64,000 nt of DNA from Acidimicrobiia bacterium (GTDB lineage Bacteria > Actinomycetota > Acidimicrobiia > IMCC26256 > JAENVU01), in assembly GCA_046598395.1 (NCBI GenBank), contig JBKJIQ010000047.1, positions 7,290 through 71,289 of the forward strand, written 5' to 3'. Shown one piece after another: positions 56,008 through 64,000 of the stretch. Made by a program: the position numbers and the translations under genes. Within the stretch, counting starts at the first letter, position 1, and each line of letters begins with the position of its first letter. The notes below the pieces were generated by a model. The model was not told the origin of the DNA, searched no databases, and was given only the letters and a program-made list of their open reading frames with translations.

Positions 56008-56879
56008 GGCTCAATGTCGGCGCGGGTGCGCAACGACCGGCCCAACGCCACCGATACTGCAGTCACCCCAATCGCGCCGAGCGCGGAAACACCGGTCATC
56101 GTCGCAGCGGCATCCACCCGGCCCGCGTCGTCGGTGACGACAGGGATACCCACGCGCACGCCGAGCGTGAACGGATCGCGACCCTGCGCGACGAACGCGG
56201 CGCGTAGCACTTCGATCCCCGTGGCGATCTCGGAGACCGTCGGTCCCAGTGGCAACCACCCGTCGCCCAGTTGGGAGATACGCGCCACCATCGGCTCGGT
56301 CAACTGGCCGCCGTACCAAACCGGGACTCGAGCCTGCGCGGGACGCGGCTCACTCCAGATGTCGGAAAAAGAAATCGTGGGAGATGCAAACGAGACTGGC
56401 GGCGCCGTCTCCCACAACGCTCGACACGCGCGAACCGCATCGTCCATGCGCGCGGTGCGACCAAGGAACTCCATGCCCGGCTCCACGAACTCTTCACGCT
56501 GCCAACCGGTCCCGATGCCGAGATCGAGTCGACCGCGGGATAGGACATCCAGCGTGGCAACCGTCTTGGCCAACAACAGCACCGGACGAAGCGGTGCGAT
56601 GAGCACACCCGTTCCGAGTCGCACTCGAGATGTCGCCCCGGCGATCGCGGCGAGCGCAGTGAGTGGCTCCAGCCACGGTTCCTCAGCCGGGTACGGAAAC
56701 TTGGCACCGTACGGATAGCGATCGAGGCGCGATCCGATCGCAACATGATCGGGAAAGACCAACTGGTCGACGCCAAGGTCGTCCGCCATGCGCGCGATAT
56801 CGACCACCGCGCCCAGATCGTCGCCGAACAAGCGAGCAAGACCAGAGATCGTGACCGACAGTGCTATCCCTTCGGACAT
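55962..56879 (-). CDS. LLM-class F420-dependent oxidoreductase
   Basis: FPDHV, WLEPLTALAAIA, RLGTGVL, LSRGRLDLGIGTGWQREEF. Confidence 0.9.
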   Translation of the reverse strand: MSEGIALSVTISGLARLFGDDLGAVVDIARMADDLGVDQLVFPDHVAIGSRLDRYPYGAKFPYPAEEPWLEPLTALAAIAGATSRVRLGTGVLIAPLRPVLLLAKTVATLDVLSRGRLDLGIGTGWQREEFVEPGMEFLGRTARMDDAVRACRALWETAPPVSFASPTISFSDIWSEPRPAQARVPVWYGGQLTEPMVARISQLGDGWLPLGPTVSEIATGIEVLRAAFVAQGRDPFTLGVRVGIPVVTDDAGRVDAAATMTGVSALGAIGVTAVSVALGRSLRTRADIEPYLAELVAAIRSSVV

Positions 56880-57949
56880 GGGATCTCCGTTTCACCTTGG
56901 AGCCGGGCCGCGAGCCACAGCAACGATTGTTTGAACGCCGCGGACCACACGTCGAAGGTGTGCTCGCCGCCTGCGATCTCAACTGCGCACGTCGTGATGC
57001 CCGCTGCACGCGTGACGGGTACCAACTCCCGTTGCGCGGCGAGAGGCCCGGCGTCATCGGTCCCCACCTCGAACCATGCGCCCATGCCGGTCAACCGAGT
57101 CCGTTCGAGGATGGTGAGCGGTTCGTGCGCTGTGAACGCCGTGTCGTCGCCACCGAACAAGTTCGCCACGGTGTTACCCACCGAGTTGTCGTCGCCCGAT
57201 CGGGGCCCGAGTAACCCGCCGTAGTCCAGGAAGGTCTGGAACACATCGGGGTGGCGAATCGACAGCATCAGACCACACATCCCTCCTTCCGACAGTCCGC
57301 CCACCGCCCAAGCCTTCGCGTCGGTGGGCAACGAGAACCGTTTCGAGACGAACGCGGGAACATCGCGAGTGAGATAATTTTCCACGGCCCCGACACACTC
57401 GGTATCGGCGGTCAACGATCCATTGTTGTCCGCCATCACGAGAACGGGGGTCTGTCCCTCGTGCCGGGCGGCATAGGCGTCACTGTTGACGTCGGCGTCA
57501 CCGCCATGCGTCCAATCCTCCGGTGTACCTGGCGTTCCGGCCAGTAACACTACGACGCCGAGGGCCGGGCGGGGCGAGGCGAACCACGCCGGCGGGAGAT
57601 ACACCTGTGCGTCCCGCGGTTCGAATCCGGGGCTACTCGACGGAATCGGAATCTGGATGACCTTGCCACGAGCCGGGACGCCGCGTTGATCTCTCACCGA
57701 CGCCACCGAGGCCGCGTCTTGCGCGCGTTGACCGAGCAGTTCTTGCCACGTAGGAATGTAGTCATAATGACGGTTCACCCAGCCCGCCGTGTTCACTGCG
57801 AGCAACAGCACGACCGCGATCGCGCCGACGATCTCACCGAGCCGACCACGCCGCCGGCCGAATATCACGATCAATCCCGTCACCACCAGCGTGAAGACTC
57901 CGATCGCAGCGAGAAACGGCACGCTGACAATTGAATCGTCGGCGACCAT
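56864..57949 (-). CDS. Membrane-anchored esterase (PF00756/antigen-85-like alpha/beta hydrolase)
   Basis: Two N-terminal TMs, VYLPP, GGLSEGG nucleophile, GTDD and GGEH triad residues; ATG 7 nt after TAACTT. Confidence 0.85.
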   Translation of the reverse strand: MVADDSIVSVPFLAAIGVFTLVVTGLIVIFGRRRGRLGEIVGAIAVVLLLAVNTAGWVNRHYDYIPTWQELLGQRAQDAASVASVRDQRGVPARGKVIQIPIPSSSPGFEPRDAQVYLPPAWFASPRPALGVVVLLAGTPGTPEDWTHGGDADVNSDAYAARHEGQTPVLVMADNNGSLTADTECVGAVENYLTRDVPAFVSKRFSLPTDAKAWAVGGLSEGGMCGLMLSIRHPDVFQTFLDYGGLLGPRSGDDNSVGNTVANLFGGDDTAFTAHEPLTILERTRLTGMGAWFEVGTDDAGPLAAQRELVPVTRAAGITTCAVEIAGGEHTFDVWSAAFKQSLLWLAARLQGETEIPCPKG

Positions 57950-58061
57950 CATTGGGAAGTTACTGGCCCACGACAACGACGGCGGGGACACCGCGACTCA
58001 GGCCGGTCTTCCCGGCCGGACATCCAAACGCCCGGGTGGGCCAGCGAGTTGACTATTCACC

Positions 58062-58952
58062 GTGTCTTGGGTCGCGGTGCTGCTTGCGTTGGGCGCGGCC
58101 GCAATTTTTTCGGTGGGTGCGGTCGCCCAACAGCAAGAAGCCTCGAACCTCGGCGAGACGGGCGCGGGATTCATTGGCGGCTTGATGCGCAGTCCGCGGT
58201 GGTGGGCCGCCACGATCGGCGACGGCGTGGGTTACCTCCTGCAAGCGGCTGCACTCGCCGTTGGATCCATCCTCGTGGTTCAGCCGCTCCTCATCATGGC
58301 GCTCGTGTTCGCCCTCCCCCTCGCGGCGCGATGGAACGCCCGGCCGATCAGCCGCGGTGCCGTGGCCTGGGCCGGTGCGATCGCCCTCGCGCTCGCCACG
58401 TTCTTGGTGGTGGGTGATCCGGGTGGCGGGGTCGACGTTGCCACCATCAAGCAGTGGCTACCGTCGATCATCGGGTGTTCCATCCTCACCGCGGCCGGTT
58501 TCGTAATTGCCCTCACCGGCCGAGCACGCCTCCGCGCCATCGGACTTGCGATCGTTGCCGGCACAATGTTCGGATTGGCCTCTGCACTGACGAAATCGAT
58601 GATGTATCTCCTCGGCGCCGACATTGGCCACGCCTTGACCTCGTGGGAGACCTACGCCGTCGTCGCGACTGGTGGGATCGGGTTGTTGTGCCAACAGCTG
58701 GCATTCCAAGCTGGTTCACTCGAGATTTCGTTCCCCGCCGCGATCGTGTTGGACCCGGTGGTGAGCGTGGCCGTCGGCCTGGCCGCGCTCGACGAGCAAG
58801 TGCACGCGTCCGGCATCGAATGGCTGCTCATCGGTGGGAGCGCGATCGTCATGATCATCGGGACCATCACACTCGCACGCGTCGGCGCACCCACGCTGCC
58901 CATACAAACGGGGGCAGACAGAGCACGATCGTCGCCCCTGCCAGCAGACTGA
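58062..58952 (+). CDS. DMT superfamily membrane transporter
   Basis: About 9-10 TMs; AVAQQ, PRWWAA, VQPL and LCQQLAFQAG motifs. Confidence 0.8.
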   Translation: MSWVAVLLALGAAAIFSVGAVAQQQEASNLGETGAGFIGGLMRSPRWWAATIGDGVGYLLQAAALAVGSILVVQPLLIMALVFALPLAARWNARPISRGAVAWAGAIALALATFLVVGDPGGGVDVATIKQWLPSIIGCSILTAAGFVIALTGRARLRAIGLAIVAGTMFGLASALTKSMMYLLGADIGHALTSWETYAVVATGGIGLLCQQLAFQAGSLEISFPAAIVLDPVVSVAVGLAALDEQVHASGIEWLLIGGSAIVMIIGTITLARVGAPTLPIQTGADRARSSPLPAD

Positions 58953-60309
58953 CGTACACGACCGGACTTCCCGTCTTGAGCTGATCCGGTGGGATGAAGC
59001 CCAACAGCAGTGACCCGGTGCACGCAAGAACGCCGACGATCCCGACACACCACATGCCGACTCCTCCGCCGGGAACTCGATAGGGACGCACGCGGTCCGG
59101 TTGGCTGAACCGCAATCGGATGAACGCTGCGAACACCAGCGCGTACATCACCGCGACGATCTGGGCCGTGACCGCGGAGAGCATCCAGTAGCTCGTCGAG
59201 GCATTGGGGACGAACAGAAACAGCAGCGAAAAGATCGTGCCCCCCATCCCTTGCGTGATCAACAACCCCACTGGCACACCGCGTGCGTTCATCCTGCCAA
59301 AGGACGCCGGGGCCCGACCATCGTGCGCGACCGCGGCCATCCCCTTGGCCGGGCCGAGGATCCATGGACTGAGATGGGCCAGACCGCCGAGACCTACGAG
59401 CAACGCAAGTGGGTGCAGCAACCAGGAAATCCCGAGCCGTGAGAGCGCGCGTTGGAACAGTTCCATCGTTCCCGACACGAGGCTCAGCTCATGGGCAGGC
59501 ACAATGAAGGCGAGGAACAACGATCCCAGCACCGAGAACACCACGATCACGATCACCGAGAGTGCGATCGAGCGGGGAACGGTCCGCCCCGGGTCAACGG
59601 TGTCATTTGCATGGAACCCTGCCATCTCCATGCCCGTGAAGAGCAGGATGATCCCCCCGAGAAACGCCAGGTTTCCGAACGAGATGTCGGGGACCAGCGC
59701 GTGACCCGAGAATGGAATCTCGGATCGCTGGCCCGATACCAACCATGCGATTCCGAGACCGACGACGAGCACCGCCGGAACGATCGAGCCGACCACAGTT
59801 CCGATCCCTCCAAACCAGGCGGAGGCAGCAGCGCCGCGCAGGTTGATCAATGTGGCCGCCCAGAACATCACCAGCATCACGGTGACGAGATACAGCTTGT
59901 TCGTGGCGAGGTCGGGATCAACCACGTACGCGAGGGATGCCGCCATGAACGACAGGACCGTTGGGAACCAAGGGATGTTCTCGGCATAGTCGCACCACAC
60001 GGCCAGAAACCCGGTGCGACCGCCGAAGGCTTCCCGTACCCATGCGTACACACCGCCCTCTTCCGGCCACGCGGTTCCAAGCTCCGAGGCCACCATCGAA
60101 ATCGGCACCAGGAAGACGAGAATCGCGAGTGCGAACAACACCAGCATCGACCAGCCGTAGACCGCCATCACCGGAAGGTTCCGTGCGCTCACGATCGCGG
60201 CCACATTGATCGCCATGAGCGCTAACACACCAAGGCTGCGGCGGCCACCTTCGCCAGTCTCCGACGATGTGCCGGACGCAGGGATCGCGCTCCCACTCGA
60301 AGCAATCAT
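58867..60309 (-). CDS. APC-superfamily amino acid antiporter (GadC-like)
   Basis: AINVAAIVSARNLP, ELGTAWPEEGGVYAWV, FTGMEMAG and RPYRVPGG; about 12 TMs. Confidence 0.85.
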   Translation of the reverse strand: MIASSGSAIPASGTSSETGEGGRRSLGVLALMAINVAAIVSARNLPVMAVYGWSMLVLFALAILVFLVPISMVASELGTAWPEEGGVYAWVREAFGGRTGFLAVWCDYAENIPWFPTVLSFMAASLAYVVDPDLATNKLYLVTVMLVMFWAATLINLRGAAASAWFGGIGTVVGSIVPAVLVVGLGIAWLVSGQRSEIPFSGHALVPDISFGNLAFLGGIILLFTGMEMAGFHANDTVDPGRTVPRSIALSVIVIVVFSVLGSLFLAFIVPAHELSLVSGTMELFQRALSRLGISWLLHPLALLVGLGGLAHLSPWILGPAKGMAAVAHDGRAPASFGRMNARGVPVGLLITQGMGGTIFSLLFLFVPNASTSYWMLSAVTAQIVAVMYALVFAAFIRLRFSQPDRVRPYRVPGGGVGMWCVGIVGVLACTGSLLLGFIPPDQLKTGSPVVYVSLLAGATIVLCLPPFVWAAWVRRRVRV

Positions 60310-60761
60310 TTGGCGCCGATTTGATCAAGGGCCAGTGTGAGGCGTTCCATGATCGCGTCGTCACGGCCTGCCGCTGCCTCGAGGGTGAACTGCCCGAAGG
60401 TCCAGACCACGCCGTCGGCATGGGGCCGTTGCTGAGACTCCAAGTTTCTCGCCGCCGCATCGCGATCGTCTCTGTTCGCGAACTCGTCGACGATCAATGT
60501 CACCACTTCGTCGTGGCAATCGATGGCGACGAACAGGATTCGGGTCGACATGGCTTGGTTGGCGAAACCGTTCGAGTTCCTAGAGGTTGAACACACCTCC
60601 AGGCCCCCCTGTTCGACGGCCGCTGTGAGCTCACCGATCGTGTGGTGATCGAACTCGTCATGTCCGGGCCCGCAGGCCACCATGCCGACGGCAGCAATCA
60701 CCACCAGGACCGACGCTCCGCGCAAATGCCTCCAACCCGGACGCGCGGGTCGTCGGGTCAC
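60306..60761 (-). CDS. Hypothetical lipoprotein
   Basis: Hydrophobic signal and lipobox MVAC; GTGA and ATGA overlaps with both neighbours. Confidence 0.7.
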   Translation of the reverse strand: MTRRPARPGWRHLRGASVLVVIAAVGMVACGPGHDEFDHHTIGELTAAVEQGGLEVCSTSRNSNGFANQAMSTRILFVAIDCHDEVVTLIVDEFANRDDRDAAARNLESQQRPHADGVVWTFGQFTLEAAAGRDDAIMERLTLALDQIGAK

Positions 60762-63700
60762 GCCACGTGTGCGGCTGAGTCGGCAACCTGGTCAGGGGCC
60801 GGAACACCCCCCACCGGGGTCGGGACGAACAGCGCGCGGCCAAAGGGCAGCACCAAGAAACCTTCCGCTCCCGCGTACAAGGCGGCAACACGCGGGAGAT
60901 CGGAGGCGTCGGCGTAGACGATGCTGCGCGGCAGCCAGAGCGGATCGAACTTCTCGTTGAACGTCCGCAACGACTCGATCTGGAAGTACGGATTCGCTTT
61001 GCGAATCCCCCATGCCGCGACCCGCTGCACCATGCCTTGCTGAATGTCAGGATCAAGGAGCCGACCCCAGGCCGCAAAATTCATCGAGAGTCGCCGCACG
61101 CCCCGCTCGGCCAAGGCGGTTGCCGCCTTCACGATCAGGAACTCGGTGATGCCGTTCGGCGCATCAGGGTCGTGCCGCATGAGATCTAGCGTGTAGCCGC
61201 GGTCGCGCCCGTAGGCGGGGACGATGCGCAGAAACCCGCTGGGCGCGCCCGCTTGGTCATAGGCGATGCACAACAGAAACTCGGGGTTCTCACCCTTGAT
61301 GTCTTGAGAGAGTGACATCGTGAAGCCGCGCTCGGGGTTCGTACCTCGCCACCGTGCGCTGATCGCGTTCAACGCCGCGACCGTGGTCTTCGGCGCGCTC
61401 GACTCCGTGATCATCTGGAACCGTTGGGTCTTCTCCAATCGGCGGGTCGCTTGGTGAATGCTCTTTGCTCCTGCTCCTTGCTGAATGGCATCGCAGCGCA
61501 CGATCGCCTCATCACCGAGATACACGTGCCGCAAACCTCTCGACGAGTAGAGCGGAAGATCGCCTTCGCGCGTCGCGAGGAACGCGGGCTTCCATGCCCG
61601 TTCACGGCAGAACGCTAGGAACTCGTCCACCACGAGCGCGATCGATTCCGGCCGTCCGATCGGGTCGCCGGCGCCGAGCCCATGGCCGGCCATATAGGTG
61701 TAGGCAATCATCGCCTCGCCGTCGGATGCAAAGAAGAAGCTCTTGTCGCTACGCAACGCAAAGTATGCGAGCGTGTCCCATCCATAGTCGTGGACCAGGC
61801 GGGTGGCGTGATCCCAATCCTCCTGGCGATGAGGGTCGCGTTGTACCAACGGCCGGAACACCACCACGACCAGGCCGATCAACCCGAAGATCCCGACGGC
61901 GAGCAGCGCGGCGGGATAGAAGTCGTGAAAGAACCGCGCCTGATAGGTGTACGGACCACTGACTCCTACCAACCCGAGCGTCACCGTTTCGATTGCACCA
62001 CCGAGCGACACCGACGGCGATATCCGTCCACGATCGAGGAACAGCGCCAACAGACCGAAGCCGTAGACCACGAGGACGTAGATCGGAAACAAACGAACGA
62101 GCCGCCACACCGATGGTGGATCCGACGGCGCCCGGAATCGATCTCGATTGGCCACCAAGAGCACGAGGAGAATCACGGAATAGGCAGCCGCAACCACATG
62201 CGGACCCTTCACTACATGCAACACAGAGCTGACCGCTGCTACCGCGGTCGCAAGTTGCCACGCGCGGTGTTTCCCCGAGCGCAGTTGGTCGGCCAAGAAC
62301 AAGAGCCCGAAGCCGGCCAACACGATCACCACTCGTCCCGAGACGCGCAGCTCCAACGGCAGGAAGCTGTCGCGGAGCGGCTCGATTTGGCGGTGGAACC
62401 ACGGCACCAGCGCGGCGGCGGAGAGCAATCCCACAACCGCAACGAGCATGGTGATCACCCGGACCGGAACCCGGGACTGGCTGAGGGGCGGCGCCGGTGC
62501 GCTCGTCAGTGCCGTGACGGTGGCGGTGAGTTCCGGCGGGGCGTCGCCCTGAGAAGAAGCTGCAGTTTCGCCGCCTGATCCGAGACCTCCCATGCCCGGT
62601 TCCGGACGCAACGTGGGGAACAGAATCACTTCGCGGATCGACGACGTTCCGGTGATCAGCATCACCAATCGGTCGACTCCAATGCCGAGTCCGCCGGTAG
62701 GAGGCATGCCGTATTCGAGTGCCCGAACGTAGTCGAGGTCGACATCTCCGGCCTCGGGATCACCTGCTCGCTTGTGGATCGCCTCGGCTTCGAACCGCTC
62801 GAGCTGATCGACCGGGTCGTTCAACTCGCTGTAGGCGTTCGCAAGTTCGTGACGGTTCACTACCAGCTCGAAACGCTCGGTCAACGTCGGGTCGTCACGA
62901 TGCGCCCGCGCGAGCGGCGACACCTCACGCGGATGATCGAGCACGAACGTCGGTTGCACCAACTTGTCCTCGACGTACTCGTCATAGACCTCGTTCGTGA
63001 GCTTGCCGGGCCCCCAGCTGGCTTCGTACGCAATCCCCAGGCCGTCGAGCACCGCGCGCGCGGCATCGAGTGTCATCGCGGGGTTGATGTCGACGCCCAC
63101 GTGTTCCTTGATCAGCTCGACCATGGTGGCGCGCCGGAACGGTGGTGACAGGTCGATCGTCTCCTCGCCCACCGTGACCTGCAGGTCCGGAACGATCGCG
63201 CGCGCACTCTCCACCACCAGACCTTCGACGAGGTCCATCATGTCGTAATAGTCCCCATACGCCTGGTACGCCTCGAGCATCGTGAACTCAGGGATGTGGG
63301 TGGTGTCGATGCCTTCATTACGGAACACGCGTCCGATTTCGAAGACCCGGTCGAGCCCACCCACGATGAGGCGCTTGAGGTGGAGTTCCAGTGCGATGCG
63401 CAAGTACATGTCTTGGCCAAGCGCGTTGAAGTGCGTGATGAATGGTCGGGCGGTCGCTCCGCCCTGGATCGATTGCAGGACAGGTCCTTCCACCTCGCGA
63501 AACCCGCGTTCCATGAGGTGGCGCCGCAACGCCGCGATGATCTCGATCCGGGCAACGGCAATTCGATGCGCGTCTTCGTTGACCACCAGATCCACGTATC
63601 GCTGCCGGTACCGCGTGTCGGTGTCGGTCAGGCCGTGCCATTTGTTCGGAAGCGGACGAACAGCTTTCGCGAGGAGCTCGAAGGACTCCACATTCACGGA

Positions 63701-64000
63701 GAGCTCGCCTCGGCGCGTGGTCATCACGGAACCGGTAACGCCCACCCAGTCGCCCCGATCGAGATGATCGAACTCGTCGTGCTTGGCCTCGCCGATCACC
63801 TTCTGGCTGACGAACAGCTGGATCTGCCCGTCGCGGTCCTGCAGCGTTGCGAAACTCAGCTTCCCTTGCCGACGGAGCAACAGCAACCGGCCGGCAATGC
63901 AGACGTTGGTTTCGGTGGTCGTACCCGGTTCCAGGTCACCGAACTCGGCGCGCAGTCCGCCCGCGGTCGCAGTGAAGTCGAACCGCACCGGATAGGGCTC
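60758..64000 (-). CDS. Class II lysyl-tRNA synthetase fused N-terminally to an MprF-type TM + DUF2156 aminoacyl transferase (5' end beyond window)
   Basis: OB domain (AGR...GKLSF..LQD), YRQRYVDL, motif 2 FRNEG, motif 3 GLGIGVDRL and REVILFP; linker; about 6 TMs; DTLAYFALRSDK, GDPIG, ERGFTM, LDLMR and SLRTFNEKF. Confidence 0.93.
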   Translation of the reverse strand, partial: EPYPVRFDFTATAGGLRAEFGDLEPGTTTETNVCIAGRLLLLRRQGKLSFATLQDRDGQIQLFVSQKVIGEAKHDEFDHLDRGDWVGVTGSVMTTRRGELSVNVESFELLAKAVRPLPNKWHGLTDTDTRYRQRYVDLVVNEDAHRIAVARIEIIAALRRHLMERGFREVEGPVLQSIQGGATARPFITHFNALGQDMYLRIALELHLKRLIVGGLDRVFEIGRVFRNEGIDTTHIPEFTMLEAYQAYGDYYDMMDLVEGLVVESARAIVPDLQVTVGEETIDLSPPFRRATMVELIKEHVGVDINPAMTLDAARAVLDGLGIAYEASWGPGKLTNEVYDEYVEDKLVQPTFVLDHPREVSPLARAHRDDPTLTERFELVVNRHELANAYSELNDPVDQLERFEAEAIHKRAGDPEAGDVDLDYVRALEYGMPPTGGLGIGVDRLVMLITGTSSIREVILFPTLRPEPGMGGLGSGGETAASSQGDAPPELTATVTALTSAPAPPLSQSRVPVRVITMLVAVVGLLSAAALVPWFHRQIEPLRDSFLPLELRVSGRVVIVLAGFGLLFLADQLRSGKHRAWQLATAVAAVSSVLHVVKGPHVVAAAYSVILLVLLVANRDRFRAPSDPPSVWRLVRLFPIYVLVVYGFGLLALFLDRGRISPSVSLGGAIETVTLGLVGVSGPYTYQARFFHDFYPAALLAVGIFGLIGLVVVVFRPLVQRDPHRQEDWDHATRLVHDYGWDTLAYFALRSDKSFFFASDGEAMIAYTYMAGHGLGAGDPIGRPESIALVVDEFLAFCRERAWKPAFLATREGDLPLYSSRGLRHVYLGDEAIVRCDAIQQGAGAKSIHQATRRLEKTQRFQMITESSAPKTTVAALNAISARWRGTNPERGFTMSLSQDIKGENPEFLLCIAYDQAGAPSGFLRIVPAYGRDRGYTLDLMRHDPDAPNGITEFLIVKAATALAERGVRRLSMNFAAWGRLLDPDIQQGMVQRVAAWGIRKANPYFQIESLRTFNEKFDPLWLPRSIVYADASDLPRVAALYAGAEGFLVLPFGRALFVPTPVGGVPAPDQVADSAAHVA

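Follow-up and report, generated by a model that had tools for sequence, protein, structure and literature searches.

We describe five neighbouring genes (positions 56864-64000) at one end of a 64,000-nucleotide stretch of DNA, here called the window, which corresponds to C23:7290-71289 in a 3.58 Mb Acidimicrobiia genome that is 98.7% complete. The genes encode a protein in which a lysyl-tRNA synthetase (LysRS) is fused through membrane segments to an aminoacyl-phosphatidylglycerol synthase (aaPGS) domain, a small extracytoplasmic protein, a permease of the amino acid-polyamine-organocation (APC) superfamily, a transporter of the drug/metabolite transporter (DMT) superfamily and a membrane-anchored esterase. 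These five genes are a real set that is kept together across many actinobacteria, and we propose, with a probability of about 60%, that they form a module for the synthesis and turnover of lysyl-lipids. The fusion protein is not an orthologue of LysX and is the sole LysRS of its genome. Both points had been missed by an earlier interpretation made from the letters of the DNA alone (the sequence-only reading), which took the genes for a lipid-aminoacylation and acid-stress module.

To follow the gene set we used four independent scans, covering genus and order relatives, 80 loci centred on the DMT gene, 80 loci centred on the esterase gene, and a census centred on the aaPGS gene. Within the genus the five-gene arrangement was found in G000, G018, G014, G011, G007 and L060. 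It was seen in G015 as well, though with a split esterase match, and in G010, though cut off by the contig end ahead of the esterase. The fusion and the DMT gene without the small gene and the permease were found in G008, G016 and G003, the same with the esterase added in G017, and a stand-alone lysS beside the DMT gene in G001, G013 and G004. The DMT-centred scan recovered the full module in Pseudonocardia endophytica DSM 44969, the arrangement lacking an esterase within the 6-kb flank in Geodermatophilus maliterrae, Blastococcus and Miltoncostaeaceae (in the last with all module genes on one strand), and the fusion with the DMT gene in several Pseudonocardia and in Modestobacter. Around the esterase, an aaPGS gene lay within 6 kb at 53 of the 80 loci; in Actinomycetospora the layout is DMT, fusion, permease, esterase.

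The census, which is unbiased as to the partners, comprised 63 loci with at least 6 kb downstream, from Acidimicrobiia, Pseudonocardia, Geodermatophilus, Modestobacter, Actinomycetospora, Frankiaceae and Thermoleophilia, and partners were counted within 7 kb. The LysRS was fused upstream of the aaPGS at 60/63 loci, and the partners were the DMT gene (50/63, 79%), the APC permease (39/63, 62%), the PF00756 esterase (37/63, 59%) and the small protein (27/63), the last count being too low because the similarity is low. At least three gene orders and orientations were seen, for example with the APC permease, small and DMT genes on the reverse strand diverging from the fusion and esterase genes. 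At one locus of an Acidimicrobiaceae metagenome-assembled genome (MAG; L211 739-5645) lysS is coupled by an ATGA overlap to the gene of a 1018-aa calcineurin-like phosphoesterase-transmembrane-aaPGS protein; the permease gene comes next, and the esterase and DMT genes are divergent from these. Co-occurrence in other genomes was the test that the sequence-only reading had set for its module, and the set does recur, although in varying orders.

In the full genome the fusion protein (P0005) has an ATG start and 1157 aa, and is built of a LysRS, a linker of about 45 aa, about six hydrophobic segments and the aaPGS domain, in that order. Its gene runs on the minus strand from 60758 to beyond 64000; it had been claimed up to 64000, where an open reading frame (ORF) is indeed present, but the start codon lies 231 nt (77 codons) past the end of the window. 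The class II LysRS domain, with an oligonucleotide-binding (OB) anticodon-binding fold (PF01336) and a catalytic core (PF00152), covers 62600-64000 (minus strand; residues 1-467 of the window-truncated protein) and scored 591 bits with TIGR00499, against a cut-off of 428. The membrane region, which follows the low-complexity linker at 61844-62458 (minus strand; residues 592-796), showed five strong and one or two weak segments in a Kyte-Doolittle scan and is predicted to form about six helices. The aminoacyl-lipid synthase domain (LPG_synthase_C, or DUF2156) lies at 60914-61801 (minus strand; residues 734-1029 of the truncated protein) and matched PF09924 with 205 bits over profile positions 2-298 of 298. 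The fusion as a whole matched tRNA_anti-codon, tRNA-synt_2 and LPG_synthase_C. The Pfam search gave no match of the fusion to PF03706, the flippase domain of MprF, and PF16995, the Pfam model for the transmembrane part, matched weakly in a Pseudonocardia fusion.

No second class II LysRS was found in the window's own genome, the search turning up the aspartyl-tRNA synthetase (AspRS) alone, and no class I LysRS scored above the cut-off. The same result was obtained for the genus and 25 relatives, i.e. no other class II and no class I enzyme, and at least nine genomes of the genus encode no LysRS besides the fusion. As no other LysRS is encoded, the fusion must in this genus also supply the Lys-tRNA for translation. 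Cultured Actinomycetes carry the reverse fusion beside a separate LysS, at 46-48% identity. Three LysRS genes are present in G295, the genome of locus L105, namely a reverse fusion (C6:221548-224868), a LysX of classical order (C4:1396044-1399067) and a stand-alone LysS (C1:75855-77345).

The fusion scored 821 bits with the LysX model NF002821 (cut-off 742), in two separate stretches, but it differs from LysX in three of the four features compared, i.e. domain order, descent of the LysRS and occurrence as a paralogue beside LysS. In a maximum-likelihood tree of 54 LysRS sequences the classical LysX domains and the Actinomycete LysS formed one clade (100/100), whereas the reverse-fusion domains of Actinomycetes (100/100) were the sister group (97/89) of the Acidimicrobiia clade in which the window falls, and both reverse-fusion clades nested among the housekeeping LysRS of Acidimicrobiia. 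Separate but adjacent lysS and short aaPGS genes were observed in G028 (L038 8732-11994), with a 1-nt overlap, and in G072 (L239 978-4478), 55 nt apart. Such pairs in other Acidimicrobiia families likely represent a pre-fusion or a fission state. A random sample of the phylum (251 genomes) added one more lineage with split lysS and aaPGS, formed by G072 and G145, and no further reverse fusion in one frame. From the tree together with the split pairs we conclude, therefore, that the reverse fusion was invented independently of LysX, from a housekeeping lysS, and it was probably passed later to other classes together with its partners. Collinear fusions are common in databases under the name 'lysine--tRNA ligase'.

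The pathway that we propose begins with the fusion, which would charge tRNA-Lys and, by its DUF2156 domain, would transfer its lysine at the cytoplasmic face to a lipid of the membrane, either phosphatidylglycerol or diacylglycerol. The lysyl-lipid would then get to the outer face, possibly by way of the DMT transporter, where the membrane-anchored Ser-Asp-His esterase may either take the lysine off or hand it on. Finally, the APC permease and its tethered extracytoplasmic partner may carry the amino acid back through the membrane. For the permease, lysine or some other basic amino acid would be the most likely substrate. A synthesis and hydrolysis cycle with its own transporter had been put forward by the sequence-only reading; this part is supported, as the pairing fits the published pattern of aaPGS genes with hydrolases and the permease does belong to the set, but its acid-stress part is weak.

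The esterase (P0001; 56864-57991, minus strand, 375 aa) matched PF00756 (43.4 bits, cut-off 22) as its sole Pfam family, which sets it apart from the AhyD and VirJ families. Ser234 (57290-57292), which lies in a GLSEGG motif, Asp313 (57053-57055) and His344 (56960-56962), all on the minus strand, form the predicted catalytic triad and are invariant across 33 homologues, and so are two cysteines. The N terminus is predicted to form a two-helix hairpin with an RRRGR loop between the helices, and with such an anchor the catalytic domain should, therefore, lie outside the cell. The true start is probably the ATG at 57952 or at 57949. An AlphaFold2 model (predicted local distance difference test score, pLDDT, 88) resembled feruloyl esterases and esterase D with a TM-score of about 0.8, and Ag85C with 0.67-0.71, so that the modelled fold is of the esterase D, CE1 or Ag85 type. 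Homologues of this esterase also flank unfused aaPGS genes (L045, L195, L200). Additionally, at the Saccharopolyspora loci L178 and L185 a LysX of classical order is followed by two PF00756 esterase homologues. In G015 (L032 944-1618) the esterase match is in two pieces and its middle is missing, which may reflect a disrupted gene or an assembly error.

The permease (P0003; 58867-60309, minus strand, 480 aa) matched PF13520 (AA_permease_2) with 195 bits. Its best NCBIfam matches were GadC models, with 415 bits for TIGR03813 (cut-off 650) and 392 bits for NF053662 (cut-off 640); TIGR00910 gave 231 bits (cut-off 673) and TyrP 301 bits, far under its cut-off. By sequence it belongs to the GadC/TyrP-like (GGA) group of APC-superfamily amino-acid permeases. 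The description as a GadC-like antiporter, given earlier from the letters, thus keeps its resemblance to GadC but has neither a score above a cut-off nor a gadB coupled to the permease here.

The small ORF (60306-60761, minus strand, 151 aa) is predicted to encode a membrane-tethered extracytoplasmic protein, and its gene lies beside the permease gene at all the surveyed loci that bear it. The proteins from Acidimicrobiia have a signal peptide and a lipobox cysteine, which in the window is Cys30 (60672-60674, minus strand), and those from Actinomycetes have a signal anchor; two cysteines are invariant among the homologues. The protein matched nothing in Pfam, NCBIfam or the PDB sequences. Its AlphaFold2 model (pLDDT 86) has an alpha/beta fold, for which Foldseek returned nothing significant, the best matches being the PknH sensor domain (E 0.055, TM-score 0.46) and TiME; we give these matches no weight. 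A profile search for the small domain in 1.84 billion representative proteins gave only 150 clusters. One of the proteins found, P0232 (687 aa), consists of a permease that is 45% identical to P0003, a linker, a 13th transmembrane helix and the small domain, and at another locus, which has no fusion in its vicinity, a small gene comes after a permease gene and overlaps it. From this fused protein and the separate permease-small pair, the small protein is therefore best read as the extracytoplasmic accessory part of the transporter. A seeming fusion of an aaPGS with the small domain (P0223) was discarded, as it looks like a frameshifted gene call.

The DMT-superfamily protein (P0002; 58062-58952, plus strand, 296 aa) scored 166 bits with NF038012 (DMT_1; cut-off 50), covering positions 1-274 of 276, and had no Pfam match. 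Nine to ten hydrophobic segments were counted, pointing to about 10 transmembrane helices. That this protein is a lipid flippase, as the sequence-only reading had suggested, is still speculation, for which speak its place as the most constant partner in the census and the lack of a flippase domain in the fusion.

Several observations weigh against the proposed lysyl-lipid pathway. All four partners were together at 16 of the 63 census loci (25%) and none was present at 8, although for some of these loci (L255, L159) the partners lie just past 7 kb on the same contig. The DMT gene stays beside lysS in three genus members without aaPGS, permease and esterase, and DMT homologues that are 40-45% identical occur in Nocardia and Rhodococcus in unrelated contexts, next to gnd, guaB-like and CNNM genes, neighbours that give no hint of a function. 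The flipping could also be done by the products of four stand-alone PF03706 genes of flippase type at other places in the genome (C41:90262-91140, C36:73573-74493, C11:39071-39925 and C19:19654-20508, one of them in an 833-aa frame). Flippase domains of the MprF type are known to act in trans (bioRxiv 10.1101/2022.03.11.483950). The nearest named families of the permease are Glu/Gln-GABA and Tyr-tyramine antiporters and not lysine transporters. In Mycobacterium marinum, disruption of a gene next to lysX left lysyl-diacylglycerol (Lys-DAG) unchanged (bioRxiv 10.1101/2025.11.06.685907); this gene is perhaps unrelated to those of the module. Among the RNA runs that were searched none carries the locus, which was found in DNA metagenomes only. 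The persistence of the DMT gene without aaPGS is the objection that has been eased: stand-alone lysS genes are nested among the fusion carriers, and lysS with DMT is therefore most simply a remnant after loss of aaPGS. The opposite possibility, lysS with DMT as the ancestral state, was rejected, as the tree nests such lineages inside the clade of fusion carriers.

Other explanations of the gene set were weighed against the lysyl-lipid module. In an acid-stress island the permease would be a GadC-type precursor/product antiporter working with a decarboxylase, and the lysyl-lipid genes would be co-regulated, as extra positive charge on the surface is protective at low pH too. Besides the resemblance of the permease to GadC, a true glutamate decarboxylase (TIGR01788, 649 bits) is encoded on another contig of the genome, with P0003 as the only GadC-like permease, and in P. 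endophytica DSM 44969 (L254 5526-10716) the gene immediately upstream of the fusion, in the same orientation, is a gadB whose product is 58% identical to GadB of the window's genome. The gene for P0232 (L318 2505-7280) follows 2 nt after an AdiA/CadA-type decarboxylase gene and adjoins a Usp gene; given such decarboxylase-adjacent relatives, partnership with a decarboxylase, even with one for basic amino acids, is therefore within the reach of this permease subfamily. Also in favour of this explanation, low pH induces lpiA, the mprF homologue of rhizobia, along with acvB. However, besides staying under every GadC cut-off, the permease tracks the fusion and not gadB, since gadB was found in 27 of 41 relatives with or without the permease, whereas the permease was found in 8 of the 41 and every time adjoined the fusion. 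A decarboxylase homologue occurred at 1 of 250 related loci (3.4 Mb), the one of P. endophytica, and no AdiA/CadA-type decarboxylase was found in the window's genome. In this organism nothing ties the permease to a decarboxylase, and the cluster itself holds none, as the sequence-only reading had pointed out; its acid-stress label is weak, and we regard such an island as unlikely.

Equally unlikely in our view is that the esterase acts as a transferase, using the lysyl-lipid as donor to make lysyl-phosphatidylglycerol (Lys-PG) from Lys-DAG or to lysylate an envelope component. PF00756 includes the Ag85 and PS1 mycoloyltransferases, PS1 came up in the sequence search and Ag85C in the fold comparison, transfer is one of the two roles proposed for PesT (PMC6103681), and LysX makes Lys-DAG, Lys-PG needing an undefined downstream step (PMC10580965). 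Nevertheless the closest folds are those of hydrolases, and the sequence does not separate the two activities. A little less likely again is a broader scheme in which the module would be a self-contained path that exports lysine on a lipid, with a logic like that of Dlt D-alanylation: the fusion would put lysine on a lipid, the DMT transporter would be the dedicated flippase of a flippase-less aaPGS, the PF00756 enzyme would transfer the lysyl group to a second envelope acceptor, the two-part permease would recapture lysine, and the sole, essential LysRS would be permanently tethered to the membrane. We hold it for improbable that the transporters serve the housekeeping LysRS by importing lysine for a cell that relies on one membrane-bound synthetase. 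The status of the fusion as sole LysRS and the DMT gene kept beside lysS after loss of aaPGS would agree with it, but the permease and the small protein are absent from all relatives with a stand-alone lysS, and the whole module is also found in Actinomycetes that keep a separate housekeeping LysS. Least probable is inherited synteny with no common function. Most of the close examples do come from one genus and the partners are individually dispensable; against this, the set recurs in three classes with at least three arrangements that differ in order and orientation, the small gene keeps its place next to the permease throughout, and esterase genes are also found at unfused aaPGS and classical LysX genes. 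The synthesis and turnover of lysyl-lipids remains our preferred reading.

The layout of the locus in the window agrees with what the sequence-only reading had stated, as the five genes, both 4-nt overlaps, the convergence of permease and DMT and the divergence of DMT and esterase were all seen in the sequence. The fusion and the small ORF share GTGA at 60761-60758 (GCG TGA as stop, GTG ACC as start), and the small ORF and the permease share ATGA at 60309-60306 (AAA TGA as stop, ATG ATT as start). The permease and DMT genes, which converge, have the last 86 nt in common (58867-58952), and the same 3' overlap was observed again in most genus relatives. Between the divergent DMT and esterase genes the gap is 70-110 nt, depending on the choice of the esterase start. 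Beyond the window the fusion gene diverges from a gene for a short-chain dehydrogenase/reductase (SDR). Promoter and terminator scans at the locus gave matches at chance level only. A metagenome search found the locus in soil and sediment, and related contigs are labelled as uncultured Acidimicrobiia MAGs.

The module bears on several puzzles of actinobacterial envelope biology. One of them is how lipids made by synthases that lack a flippase, LysX among them, get to the outer leaflet, and the DMT transporter, present at about 80% of the reverse-fusion loci, is a candidate. The role of PesT-type esterases and the origin of Lys-PG, given that LysX makes Lys-DAG, are others; here the module names an extracytoplasmic Ser-Asp-His enzyme, with a fold common to esterases and mycolyltransferases, and a two-part permease as candidates. 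Module genes occur in cultured Pseudonocardia endophytica DSM 44969, Geodermatophilus obscurus DSM 43162, Modestobacter and Actinomycetospora, so that the proposed roles are directly testable. A free-living bacterium whose only LysRS is a membrane protein also contrasts with the published view of fused aminoacyl-tRNA synthetases (LysX, ErdS) as dedicated paralogues that accompany a housekeeping enzyme, and neither of the database labels 'LysX' and 'lysine--tRNA ligase' conveys the reversed, independently derived architecture.

In the literature that was searched we found no description of the reversed fusion, of its status as sole LysRS, or of the permease, small-protein and DMT partners, and comparison is therefore made with the nearest known systems. 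The two transporters have the more distant parallels. P0003 shares the APC fold with the GadC, AdiC and CadB antiporters, its best family matches are GadC, and a small-domain relative is coupled to an AdiA/CadA-like decarboxylase, but it falls under all equivalog cut-offs, has no decarboxylase partner here and comes with an extracytoplasmic accessory protein, which to our knowledge has not been described for GadC, AdiC or CadB. ArnE/ArnF is a DMT-superfamily flippase for undecaprenyl-phosphate-aminoarabinose, i.e. for a cationic lipid-linked group, in cationic-peptide resistance. It offers a precedent for P0002 at the level of the superfamily, and lipid flipping by P0002 is hypothetical.

LysX of Mycobacterium tuberculosis (Rv1640c) and Corynebacterium shares with the fusion a LysRS, a membrane-anchored DUF2156 transferase, about six transmembrane segments and the lack of a flippase domain, and its product is Lys-DAG (PMC10580965). 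However, LysX has the membrane and aaPGS parts at the N terminus and the LysRS at the C terminus (PMC6103681, PMC10580965), the reverse of the window fusion. Its LysRS groups with Actinomycete LysS (100/100) whereas that of the window groups with the Acidimicrobiia housekeeping enzymes, and LysX coexists with LysS (PMC6103681) whereas the fusion is here the only LysRS.

It is common for aaPGS genes to be accompanied by those of hydrolases that regulate the levels of aminoacyl-lipids, such as AhyD, VirJ and PesT (PMC6103681). In MprF with AhyD, or with VirJ/AcvB/PA0919, the gene of the synthase likewise goes with that of an extracytoplasmic serine hydrolase, for the turnover of aminoacyl-lipids (PMC6103681, PMC7334510); in contrast, the hydrolase is here of the PF00756 family, the synthase has no flippase domain, and two transporters and a small tethered protein are added. 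The AlaDAGS-PesT operon of Corynebacterium glutamicum likewise combines an aaPGS homologue with a 'putative esterase' that may be a hydrolase or a transferase (PMC6103681), a likeness drawn from its description, and differs in that the amino acid is here set by the fused LysRS. Fungal ErdS/ErdH has the same order of an aminoacyl-tRNA synthetase N-terminal to DUF2156, and its alpha/beta-hydrolase, which takes the amino acid off, is encoded divergently (PMC7334510). However, ErdS is built on an AspRS, modifies ergosterol and lacks transmembrane segments, ErdH belongs to PF07859, and every fungus with ErdS keeps a separate AspRS, whereas the window organism has no second LysRS. By analogy with these systems, the core of the module, a synthase together with an extracytoplasmic serine hydrolase, may work in the same way as MprF/AhyD, MprF/VirJ, AlaDAGS/PesT and ErdS/ErdH.

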